From positions 21,117 through 85,116 of the forward strand of contig JAYRZI010000002.1 in the NCBI GenBank assembly GCA_041916575.1: 64,000 nt of DNA. The letters run 5' to 3'. Shown here one piece after another: positions 3,539 through 5,670 of this stretch. Positions within the stretch are counted from its first letter, which is position 1. The number at the start of each line of letters is the position of its first letter. This DNA is from Haliangiales bacterium. Its GTDB lineage: Bacteria > Myxococcota_A > Polyangia > Haliangiales > Haliangiaceae. The notes below the pieces were generated by a model that worked only from the letters and a program-made list of their open reading frames with translations, searched no databases and had not been told where the DNA came from. A program made the position numbers and the translations under genes.

Positions 3539-3648
3539 AAACTCAGGATCTCCGAAACCCGCAGAGGCTGCGGGCGGTCTGGAGAAGCCCGCCGCCCCAC
3601 AAGACACGCCCTGGCCCGCCACCGTCCGCCAGCCCCGCCCCCGAGCCC

Positions 3649-3677
3649 ATCTCTCTCTCTCTCTCTCTCTCTCTCTC
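3649..3677. repeat. (TC)n dinucleotide microsatellite, about 14 units, inside a REP-like unit
   Basis: Uninterrupted tctctc... run visible in the sequence. Confidence 0.9.
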
Positions 3678-3949
3678 CTGGGCGCCCCGCGATCTCCGCC
3701 GAAATTCAAACTCACGATCTCCGAAACCAAAACAAAAAAGATCAGAGTCTCCGAAACCCGCAGGGGCTGTGGGCGGTGTGGAGAAGCGCGCCGCCCCCCA
3801 TCAGGCACGCCCCGGCCCCATGAGCCCTCGCGCGCTTCTCCAAGGGCTGTGGAGTGCGCCGCGCTATCCCTCTATCGAAGGCACGCCCCCGCCGCCCGCG
3901 GCGCGGCCACTCCACCAGCCCGCCACCGTCCACCAGCCCCGCCCCCGAG

Positions 3950-3976
3950 CCTCTCTCTCTCTCTCTCTCTCTCTCC
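3950..3976. repeat. (CT)n dinucleotide microsatellite, about 13 units, inside a REP-like unit
   Basis: Uninterrupted ctctct... run visible in the sequence. Confidence 0.9.
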
Positions 3977-4322
3977 TGGGCGCCCCGCGATCTCCGCCAA
4001 AAATCAACAATCGATCTCCGAAGACCAAAAACAAAAAAACTCAGGGCCTCCGATACCCGCAGGGCTGTGGGCGGTGTGGAGAAGCGCGCCGTCCCCCAAG
4101 GCACGCCCTGGCCCCATGAGCCCTCGTGCGCTTCTCCAAGGGCTGTGGAGTGCGCCGCGCTATCCCTCTATCGAAGGCACGCCCCCGCCACCCCTAGCGC
4201 GGCCACTCCACCAGCCCGCCACCGTCCACCAGCCCCGCCCCCGAGTCCCAAACAAAGCCCATCGAGAATCATTGTTTTAGATATTAATATTCGCACCTCA
4301 CAGACTGTGAGTCTGTTAGTCA

Positions 4323-5144
4323 TTGCCACTTCCCTTCGTTCACTCGCCAGTCCAAAGTGAGACCATGAGCAGGGGAGGGACCCATACTCCATCGCGCCGC
4401 GCCAGCCGCGCTACCCAGCCAGCGCAGCTCACCCTGGACAGCGCGCGCAAACCCAGCGGACGCGGCGGCTGGCGTCCGGGCGCCGGACGCCCCCGCGGCC
4501 GCCGAAACGCACAGACTTGCAGCCACACCGCTCGCGCCCGCTTTTCCTCGCGCGCCCCCGCCCATATCACCCTGCGCATCGCTGCAGATGTGCCCTCGCT
4601 ACGCCAGAGCGCCGCCGTGGCCCTGGTGCGCACCACCCTAGCCGCCAGCCACACCGAGACCTTCCTCATCCTCGAGTTCAACGTGCTCTCGAACCACATC
4701 CACCTTCTCATCGAGGCGGATGACCAGACCGCGCTGACCCAGGGCATGCGCGCCCTGAACGTGCGCCTGGCCCGGCGCCTCAACCGCCACTTCACCCGCC
4801 GCGGACCCGTGCTCGCCGAGCGCTACCACGCCCGCCGCCTGGCCACCCCGCGCGAAGTCCGCAACGTCCTGCGCTACGTGCTGCTAAACGCCCGCCACCA
4901 CGCCGCCCAGCGCGGCCAGCGCCTGGCCCGCGGCTGGCTCGACCCCGCATCCAGCGCCGCCTGGTTCGACGGCTGGAGCCACCCAGAACACGCAGATCGC
5001 AGCGCCTACTGGATCGTGCAGCTCCAGCGCATCCCGCGCCCAACGCGCGCGCCCCGCACCTGGCTCTGCGCCATCGGCTGGCGCCGCCACGGCCTGCTCG
5101 CGATCGATGACATCCCCGGCGACGTCCCCAGCAACCCTCCGTGA
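4323..5144 (+). CDS. REP-associated tyrosine transposase (RAYT; IS200/IS605-like TnpA_REP, HUH endonuclease superfamily). The real start is possibly the Met at 4365.
   Basis: HUH motif NHIHLLIEADD and Tyr-containing motif RYHARRLATPREVRNVLRYVLLNARHH parallel the E. coli TnpA_REP motifs HMHCIW and RFWEHAIRNTKDYRHHVDYIYINPVKH. The gene is flanked on both sides by REP-like repeats in inverted orientation. An AT-rich putative promoter with a small palindrome CAGACTGTGAGTCTG lies just upstream. Confidence 0.75.
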   Translation: MPLPFVHSPVQSETMSRGGTHTPSRRASRATQPAQLTLDSARKPSGRGGWRPGAGRPRGRRNAQTCSHTARARFSSRAPAHITLRIAADVPSLRQSAAVALVRTTLAASHTETFLILEFNVLSNHIHLLIEADDQTALTQGMRALNVRLARRLNRHFTRRGPVLAERYHARRLATPREVRNVLRYVLLNARHHAAQRGQRLARGWLDPASSAAWFDGWSHPEHADRSAYWIVQLQRIPRPTRAPRTWLCAIGWRRHGLLAIDDIPGDVPSNPP

Positions 5145-5149
5145 AGGGC

Positions 5150-5670
5150 TCATGGTCGGGGCTATGGACGGTGGCGGGGCTGGTGGAGTGTCCGCGTAGG
5201 CAGTAACGCAATCGTACCTGTCATCGAGGAGGTGCGCGGAGCACTCCACAGCCCCTTGGAGAAGCGCCTGGCGAGCGTGGGCCAGGGCATGCCTTCATAT
5301 CCGGCGCGCTTCTCCACACCGCCCACAGCCCCTGCGGGTACCAGAGCCCTGAGTTTGATGTTTTTTGGCGAAGAAGAAGATCGGCAGTGTGGAGGTGGAG
5401 AGATCGCGCGCAGCGGTGGATGGCGCGCGGGGCGGAGGACTCTTGCGCGAGGTGCCGGCATGGTCGGGGCTATGGACGGTGGCGGGGCTGGTGGAGTGTC
5501 CGCGTAGGCAGTAACGCAATCGTACCTGTCATCGAGGAGGTGCGCGGAGCACTCCACAGCCCCTTGGAGAAGCGCGCGAGGGCACATGGGGCCAGGGCGT
5601 GCCTGGTGGGGGCGGCGCGCTTCTCCACACCGCCCACAGCCCCTGCGGGTACCAGAGCCCTGAGATCCTT
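5150..5670 (-). repeat. Two REP/BIME-like units in reverse orientation downstream of RAYT. Their first ~100 bp are identical (5153-5250 and 5465-5560).
   Basis: GGTCGGGGCTATGGACGGTGGCGGGGCTGGTGGAGTGTCCGCGTAGGCAGTAACGCAATCGTACCTGTCATCGAGGAGGTGCGCGGAGCACTCCACAGCCCCTTGGAGAAGCGC occurs twice verbatim. It is the reverse complement of the upstream unit motif ...CTTCTCCAAGGGCTGTGGAGTGCGC... Confidence 0.6.

Follow-up and report, generated by a model that had tools for sequence, protein, structure and literature searches.

What kind of element is formed by a small transposase gene that stands between two opposed arrays of long, intricately folded repeats? The question is raised by a locus in a 64,000-nt stretch of a Haliangiales bacterium (assembly GCA_041916575.1, contig JAYRZI010000002.1, positions 21,117 to 85,116; hereafter the window), where three forward repeat units lie upstream of a gene for a Y1 HUH protein and two inverted units lie downstream. 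A first-pass annotation had read the locus as a single-copy REP-associated tyrosine transposase (RAYT; REP, repetitive extragenic palindrome) flanked by the REP repeats that it spreads. Characterised REP/RAYT systems consist of small hairpins and single-copy domesticated enzymes. On balance, and with modest confidence, we favour a related but different reading, in which the locus is a REPtron- or TIRtron-like Y1 HUH module belonging to a Myxococcota-specific clade, with a strand-specific three-way junction of single-stranded DNA (ssDNA) as its cognate repeat.

The open reading frame (ORF) at 4323..5144 (+) contains, as first annotated, an HUH motif (NHIHLLIEADD) and a tyrosine motif ERYHARRLATPREVRNVLRYVLLNARHH (RYHARRL...RYVLLNARHH), and its product matches Pfam Y1_Tnp (E 7.6e-8), no other Pfam domain being found. 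The ATG at 4365 is the likely start, because an identical database protein (P0001) is 259 aa long and the alignment of homologs agrees. The HUH histidines H111 and H113 and the tyrosine Y171 of the Y-motif (YVLLNA) are invariant in 78 homologs, and the protein has a clade-specific Arg/Gly-rich N-terminus and Trp-rich C-terminal domain. In an AlphaFold2 model (predicted local distance difference test score 86) the Y1 HUH core at residues ~61-182 is confident, as is an additional, mostly non-helical C-terminal region; residues 1-60 are of low confidence, though Arg/Gly-rich and conserved in sequence. A Foldseek search of the PDB with this model returned the TnpA proteins of ISDra2, IS608 and IS200 and the Escherichia coli RAYT (entries 2xm3, 2vjv, 2f4f and 4er8; E 7e-5 to 2e-4), with the widest residue coverage for 4er8. 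Confirming the Y1 fold required this fold search, because a sequence-profile search of solved structures gave only marginal matches to ISDra2 (E 0.08) and nothing to 4er8.

More than 3,550 homologs of the protein are present in databases, mostly from Myxococcota; the taxonomy of the clade is based on the few homologs with organism names, together with metagenome-assembled genomes (MAGs) from a genome scan, and these are Myxococcales, Kofleriaceae or Haliangiales. The NCBIfam model REP_Tyr_transpos (NF047646) matches all 78 of the homologs tested (best E 1.1e-14), and transpos_IS200 (NF033573) matches four of them. By the motif criteria of Quentin et al. 2018 (PMC6006769), clade members carry NH[ILV]H and, in place of Y---NP, YVLLN[A/S/G]; the clade consensus (FAERYHAR and RYVLLNARHH) carries AE at the W[QE] site, with FQ in one member. 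Judged by these motifs, the clade is class-2-like and falls outside every described subclass.

The repeats are as distinctive as the protein. A full unit is ~210 nt long, and its single strand folds into a three-way junction in which an invariant outer stem (GGGGCTGTG.GGCGGTG paired with CACCGTCCACAGCCCC) encloses two hairpins with 40-50-nt loops, both standing on TGTGG/CTGTG feet that resemble REP feet of the GT[AG]G type. Folded as ssDNA, full units reach -64.7 kcal/mol (z = -6.5; U2, the second upstream unit) and -65.6 kcal/mol (z = -5.3). A MAFFT alignment of 22 units shows the invariant blocks AGGGGCTGTG.GGCGGTGTGG, CCAAGGGCTGTG and AGCCCGCCACCGTCCACAGCCCC and a consensus structure of 41 pairs, with 99.4% of cells paired, compared with 43-51% when the partners are slid, and with compensatory changes in both hairpin 1 and hairpin 2. 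Extending the alignment to 34 units from six assemblies, by fitting them to a covariance model, gave 98.4% of cells paired and two-sided changes in 23 of the 41 pairs, such that all major helices were supported. Cells holding G·T (G·U) numbered 52 in the MAFFT alignment and 71 in the model-fitted one, against 0 and 2 cells holding A·C. Since G·T is frequent and A·C almost absent, we conclude that the fold is selected on one strand, as ssDNA or as RNA of that sense. The covariance model (R1) likewise strongly favours the forward strand (158 bits, vs 16 for the reverse).

A CT-rich tract and, after it, an A-rich leader open every repeat period, both in the window and in the related assembly JADJJK01, whose arrays carry short CT tracts at the corresponding junction position. 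In the window the long (CT)n tracts are expansions of that conserved junction element; none lies between the last unit and the gene. Rfam searches with the window locus and with 13 metagenome loci matched no family, and the pattern GGCTGYGGGCGGTSTGGRGAAGC had 0 matches in the genome and metagenome contig collections, of which the source genome is not a member. Six-frame peptides of the units had 0 matches among 5.8 billion proteins, which is uninformative as units are not called as ORFs. CGTC or CGTA stands before many of the units, and we considered and rejected an identification with CGTC-tagged REPs, which have 8-9-bp stems and 4-5-nt loops. At one related locus (L031) the hairpin feet read TGTGGATAA, a perfect DnaA box; the feet in the window match that consensus at only 6-8 of 9 positions.

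The connection between unit and gene family extends to other genomes. Searches with blastn and nhmmer found forward tandem arrays of 1-4 units upstream of homologous genes, and model R1 added units beside more distant paralogs (L026, L028, L031, L035 and L036). In a scan with R1 of 1.23 Mb of fetched related loci, where a strong unit was one with E <= 1e-6, 33 of the 34 strong units lay within ~1 kb of a family gene. This pairing is kept down to ~50% protein identity (37% for the second gene in L036), and it is seen in JADJJK01, JBDHVH01, DASTLB (L028, L031, L035), CAZRSQ (L026) and JAEUJY (L036), along with the metagenome contig L147. Inverted flanks recur in 11 other loci. The order found in the window, with forward units before the gene and inverted units after it, is shared by L028 and L035, while in L036 an inverted and then a forward unit precede the gene. 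The lone strong unit away from a family gene (L011, 35-244) lies at the start of its contig; beyond it come an AT-rich spacer and an ORF of 500 aa (586-2085) whose product has an HNH endonuclease domain.

Within the window, the layout of the array had been described correctly at the outset: three forward units (U1-U3), with tracts of (TC)14 and (CT)12.5 at their junctions, and two reverse-complement units (D1 and D2) sharing a stretch of identical sequence (Table 1). Repeat finders give the upstream tandem a period of ~296 nt. U3 is 90% identical to U2, and the shortened U1 is still recognised by R1 (31.6 bits, E 1.2e-5, model positions 1-213 with a deletion). Core motifs of 19-27 nt occur 3-5 times, at this locus only within the window, where shuffles predict 0-0.06, and neither motif counts nor R1 found a further unit elsewhere in the 64 kb. 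The identity of ~100 bp reported between D1 and D2 is in fact two segments at 100%, one of 117 nt (5151-5267 = 5459-5575) and one of 52 nt (5302-5353 = 5613-5664), which enclose a diverged patch. The hairpin-2 loops of D1 and D2 are identical to each other and of the type found upstream of a paralog of the gene (78% identity, vs 43-46% to U2/U3); the hairpin-1 loop of D2 is of the U2/U3 type (82-86%), and that of D1 resembles none other. Because the two units are mosaics in this way, we read the identical stretches as products of recent local duplication and of exchange between units, not as demonstrated transposition. The claim that identical duplicates record recent activity of REPINs (inverted REP doublets) therefore gives way to an explanation in which the pattern points to local duplication or gene conversion.

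Table 1. Coordinates of the features at the locus (window positions unless a contig is named; R1, covariance model of the unit; TRF, Tandem Repeats Finder).
Feature	Position	Strand	Description
LysR-family regulator	2576..3538	+	Pfam HTH_1 and LysR_substrate; substrate domain ends at residue 298 of 320
Unit U1	3536..3648	+	Internal-deletion variant, ~105 nt missing; 5' part and 3' outer-stem strand retained
(TC)14 microsatellite, U1/U2 junction	3650..3677	+	TRF: period 2, 14 copies, 100%
A-rich leader of U2	3678..3734	+	GATCTCCG repeats; direct-repeat family D4
Unit U2	3735..3952	+	Full three-way junction: outer stem and two TGTGG-footed hairpins; R1 141.9 bits
(CT)12.5 microsatellite, U2/U3 junction	3951..3975	+	TRF
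Unit U3	4034..4248	+	Full unit nearest the gene, no CT tract after it; R1 147.3 bits
AT-rich spacer	4249..4364	+	Between U3 and start codon; presumed promoter region
Y1 HUH (TnpA_Y1 / RAYT-like) gene	4365..5144	+	259 aa; Pfam Y1_Tnp, NCBIfam
Unit D1	5146..5359	-	3' end 2-8 nt past the Y1 stop; R1 156.4 bits (minus) vs 19.3 (plus)
Unit D2	5454..5670	-	Mosaic; R1 158.3 bits; inverted pairs I4 and I7 at 92-94%
AraC-family pseudogene remnant	5664..5855	+	C-terminal ~63 codons and stop; begins at outer edge of D2
Paralog locus	Contig L002: unit 2653-2868, gene 2974-3723		~2.2-3.3 kb before window position 1

Two further observations concern the array and the spacer next to it. The AT-rich spacer contains a perfect palindrome, CTCACAGACTGTGAG, at 4297-4311, ~55 nt before the start of the Y1 gene; it is built from the CTGTG/CACAG motif found in the units and may be an operator. 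Short-read Logan contigs from the same organism (SRR26835462) end inside the array, L002 at ~3682, where the (TC)14 tract ends, and L001 at ~5635, within D2, making the locus an assembly breakpoint.

Contrary to what had been supposed, the gene is not single-copy. Contig L002, which comes from the sequencing run of the source organism and overlaps the left end of the window, carries a second Y1 paralog in the same orientation (249 aa, 76% identical), which lies outside the window at ~6.4 kb upstream of the locus. The paralog is preceded by one forward unit and followed, after its stop codon, by the first ~40 nt of an inverted unit, the junction of stop codon and inverted unit being the same sequence at both genes. 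The automatic call for this paralog (P0008, 184 aa) begins too late. Related MAGs have at least 4-9 family genes each, these counts being lower bounds drawn from the best 80 loci alone; their mean intragenomic identity is 81% at the amino acid level, and five of 138 intragenomic pairs reach 95% or more. Four loci (L014, L036, L054 and L056) have another family gene or fragment in the same orientation no more than 10 kb away, and paralogs tend to cluster. For comparison, published RAYT subclasses have 1.2-1.9 copies at 36-55% identity (PMC6006769, Table 1), whereas copies of IS200 are ~99% identical (PMC6006769). By these counts the copy behaviour of the clade is unlike that of IS200 or typical RAYTs and resembles that of subclass 2.3 of Chromatiales and Alteromonadales (mean 3.9 copies at 74.8%), which has been read as spreading actively without the near-identity of IS200-like elements (PMC6006769). 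The members of that subclass differ, however, in being ~325 aa long with two core insertions, in their NHYH and YVDLNP motifs, in their taxa, and in that no flanking structured repeats were found for them.

Units also occur away from the gene family. Scanning metagenomes with the 5' outer-stem motif gave at least 120 loci, and the 3' partner of the stem was then required as a filter, since ~80% of the loci are chance matches, most of those inspected lying in one recurring coding context (cysE-like, by eye). The 23 loci with a 3' partner are unit-like, with lengths of 44-171 nt and one to three hairpins, and the covariance model confirms 13-15 of them (E 1e-7 to 1e-15). Only L147 adjoins a family gene. 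In the IS21/IstB context (L088, L118, L119, L149 and L163) units occur 5-25 nt past the stop codons of istB genes, inside IS21-type ends; in the HTH+rve context (L098, L107, L143) they follow a transposase gene, in the DDE_Tnp_1_4 context (L102, L180) one lies upstream of an IS1380-like transposase gene, and at L165 the unit follows the gene for a type I restriction-modification S subunit. Most units in or beside insertion sequences (ISs) occupy the gap that separates the stop codon of the transposase from the terminal repeats. In the IS cases the 3' end of the unit points to the stop codon, like that of D1 in the window. Occurrence in such unrelated contexts means that the architecture is not restricted to the Y1 gene family. 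Solo units are to be expected if units can move in trans; they fit trans-mobilisation and they also fit a generic portable module.

How, then, does the locus compare with systems already described? Its layout and type of enzyme match those of REPtrons and, still more closely, those of TIRtrons. REPtrons of E. coli, Stenotrophomonas, Pseudomonas and Marinomonas (PMC2817692, PMC8266576) share the Y1 HUH enzyme, structured repeats cognate to it that flank the gene left and right, inverted and often several per side, and a 5' foot of the GT[AG]G type (GTGG in the window units). In some of them, such as those of Marinomonas, REPs are found mainly close to the gene (PMC8266576), as are the units here, and S. 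maltophilia has several paralogs each with its own repeat variant. The repeats themselves are different: a REP is a palindrome of 20-40 nt, whereas the unit in the window is a three-way junction of ~210 nt that has long loops and comes with a CT tract and an A-rich leader, so that of the REP or BIME (bacterial interspersed mosaic element) flanks first annotated, the inverted REPtron layout stands and the identity of the repeat does not. The Y1 clade also has many moderately diverged copies per genome, with no large dispersed repeat population demonstrated. RAYT-like genes flanked by terminal inverted repeats (TIRs) were named TIRtrons by Di Nocera et al. 2013 (PMC3733652). TIRtrons or TIRYTs, which approximate to TnpAY1 subclass 2.1 (PMC3733652, PMC6006769), likewise have a RAYT-like protein of ~240-260 aa and long inverted repeats without GTAG, which sometimes form small families as dimers or clusters and whose G-rich motif, like that of the unit, opens with GGGG; delta-proteobacteria are among the groups in which subclass 2.1 is reported to be prevalent (PMC6006769). 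Against this, the published TIR motif is GGGGWSAS and that of the window GGGGCTGTG, the subclass 2.1 protein has an HTH/Bac_DnaA_C-like C-terminus and Y[IV]xLNP where the window protein has a Trp-rich C-terminus and YVLLNA, and descriptions of TIRtrons include no tandem arrays of a covarying three-way junction. The locus thus departs from known systems in the size and complexity of the repeat, its CT- and A-rich tandem organisation, the protein motifs and the multi-copy behaviour. In the literature searched, we found no paper that ties tyrosine transposases or REPs to Myxococcota and none that describes a ~210-nt unit of this kind.

Several results weigh against the module reading that we favour. 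The window protein, the one clade member among the 78 for which a bit score is set against the cut-off, scores 44.7 bits with REP_Tyr_transpos, below the curated cut-off of 80, and the class-2 motifs W[QE] and Y---NP are missing from it. The 34-unit alignment leans towards the structure, because its units were fitted to the structure of the model. There is no one fixed end architecture that is conserved, since arrangements vary: the JADJJK01 clade has forward units and the gene with no unit downstream, and in L031 the units (9654-9833, minus; 10804-10979, plus) have their leaders towards the gene, opposite to those of the window. Only one unit was found in the 982 kb sampled at more than ~1.3 kb from family genes, so that a trans-mobilised population of units, if it exists, is small in the sampled loci. 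Moreover, 12-13 solo units stand in unrelated ISs with no Y1 gene on the contig, and the unit may therefore be independent of the Y1 enzyme.

The explanation closest to the first-pass annotation is that the protein is a classical domesticated TnpAREP, single-copy and vertically inherited, and that the flanking units are the masters of a large REP/REPIN population spread throughout the genome. We regard this as improbable. It would account for the inverted flanking repeats, for the GTGG foot on both hairpins, for REP_Tyr_transpos being the best NCBIfam match, for the solo units in metagenomes and for the breaks within the array in assemblies of the same organism. But the two paralogs within 7 kb and the copy numbers and identities of the related MAGs are out of keeping with published RAYT subclasses, the unit is far longer than a REP, and although the RAYT assignment survives insofar as the protein is a Y1 HUH enzyme that the RAYT model scores above the IS200 model (44.7 vs 20.7 bits), the family cut-off and motifs are both missed. 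Repeats of RAYTs are usually dispersed through the genome in more than 100 copies; here the window contains 0 further units, only 1/34 strong units in the 1.23 Mb of related loci lies away from a family gene, and solo units do occur in metagenomes.

Another possibility is that array and gene together are an autonomous IS-like cassette, the units being its ends and there being no separate population of repeats. Evidence for this comes from JADJJK01, where copies of the cassette are 77-93% identical in nucleotide sequence from the start of the array to the stop codon and no further, in differing contexts, and from L010 and L018, which belong to different MAGs and are 93% identical over the cassette only; the gene is multi-copy and the units almost always adjoin it. 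We nonetheless think a cassette of this kind unlikely, for its copies are far more diverged than those of a typical IS (compare the 5/138 close pairs with the ~99% of IS200), the JADJJK01 clade has no defined right end, unit number and orientation vary, and solo units are found in unrelated contexts. The narrower alternative that had been set against the RAYT annotation from the start, an ordinary IS200/IS605 transposase, fails on similar grounds. IS200/IS605 elements and the ORF-less PATEs (palindrome-associated transposable elements) do share the Y1 HUH fold, which gives the top Foldseek matches, IS200/IS605 recognise strand-specific ssDNA hairpins, and the two same-strand hairpins of a unit resemble a mini-element made of a left end and a right end (LE and RE). 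However, the window protein falls below the transpos_IS200 cut-off of 55 bits and has YVLLNA instead of Y---Q, its copies are not near-identical, no tnpB is present, and the flanks are inverted and ~210 nt long, where IS200/IS605 have small LE and RE hairpins on the same strand.

A portable structured module unrelated to Y1 catalysis, perhaps acting as RNA, is a further candidate; it might be the miniature inverted-repeat element of another transposon, a terminator, or an mRNA stabiliser or insulator at the borders of mobile genes. In its favour, units lie 5-25 nt past the stop codons of istB and of an HTH+rve transposase, inside those ISs, D1 has the same relative orientation 2-8 nt past the Y1 stop, and like units lie near the IS1380-like transposase, the S subunit gene and the HNH-domain ORF. 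A role as RNA elements downstream of genes is known for REPs (PMC3733652), and G·U pairs would fit RNA equally well. Yet the downstream copies, if transcribed, give the complementary strand, in which the 71 G·T cells become A·C mismatches. The alignment of the JADJJK01 clade, read by eye, has a promoter-like TTGCCA-17 nt-TAATCT in the spacer just before the ATG, between the last unit and the gene, which places the upstream units probably outside the mRNA. Scans of the window locus for sigma-70 consensus sequences and terminators gave nothing above shuffle level and no T-run terminator, no Rfam family matches, and units are kept beside the gene family as tandem arrays in six assemblies despite protein divergence to ~50%. 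We therefore consider this explanation rather unlikely too.

If the locus is instead a REPtron- or TIRtron-like module, as we favour, the Y1 gene would be retained together with its cognate recognition units. Wherever the DNA becomes single-stranded, as it does at a replication fork, the enzyme would bind the folded hairpins, cut, and rejoin nearby, by analogy with TnpAREP, which binds folded ssDNA REPs through the GTAG foot and cleaves at a CT 5' or 3' of the hairpin (PMC8266576). The cleavage site may be the CT-rich tract that bounds each unit, a proposal we make because the characterised TnpAREP enzymes cut at CT. Units would as a result be amplified locally in tandem, exchange sequence with one another and now and then give rise to solo copies, and unit plus gene would be copied as a cassette. 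The data show the fold with its covariation and strand specificity, the linkage of gene and unit in several genomes, the presence of multiple gene copies and the damage to neighbouring genes; binding and cleavage by the enzyme, ssDNA and not RNA as the folded species, and a role for the CT tract are what we infer. Going further, the ~200-nt unit, with its GGGGCTGTG...CACAGCCCC outer stem, one to three GTGG-footed hairpins and CT-rich and A-rich leader, could represent an undescribed class of portable strand-specific element that serves a large Myxococcota clade of Y1 HUH enzymes, itself undescribed, as cognate substrate and is mobilised in trans as ssDNA. We offer this only tentatively, as a possibility that we would not yet back. 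If true, trans mobilisation as ssDNA would explain why units are found in IS21, HTH+rve and IS1380-like elements right after transposase genes, and the partnership would be one of the REP-RAYT kind on a DNA fold far more complex than any characterised.

The array has also altered the genes on either side of it. The first repeat leader supplies the last ~16 codons and stop of the LysR-family gene (~3488-3538), and segment 3491-3535 matches the leader between units at 3687-3731 (family D4) with 82% identity. On the other side, the truncation first reported for the AraC-family gene is borne out, the cut falling exactly at the edge of the array, and NCBIfam AraC-type models match the remnant over their last ~55 positions only (e.g. 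QhpR, 230-284 of 284). The array has thus replaced the 3' end of LysR and taken out the 5' four-fifths of AraC. Further along, the minus strand at ~6454-17000 encodes an isochorismatase-family protein, an APH-type kinase, a 586-aa ORF without a Pfam match and an OEP outer-membrane factor, then a pair of ABC transporters, of which one has a C39 peptidase domain, and an HlyD/AprE-like protein; from their domains these genes together resemble a cluster for bacteriocin or type I export.

For the organism, the local consequence is that one regulator gene (AraC) is inactivated and the end of another (LysR) rewritten. As the array has also placed two long CT microsatellites here, the locus is likely to be a hotspot of rearrangement as well as of assembly breaks. 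For the family, if the enzyme does act on the unit, the range of ssDNA structures known for HUH enzymes would be widened, and the clade would provide a tractable intermediate between selfish IS200-like elements and domesticated RAYTs.

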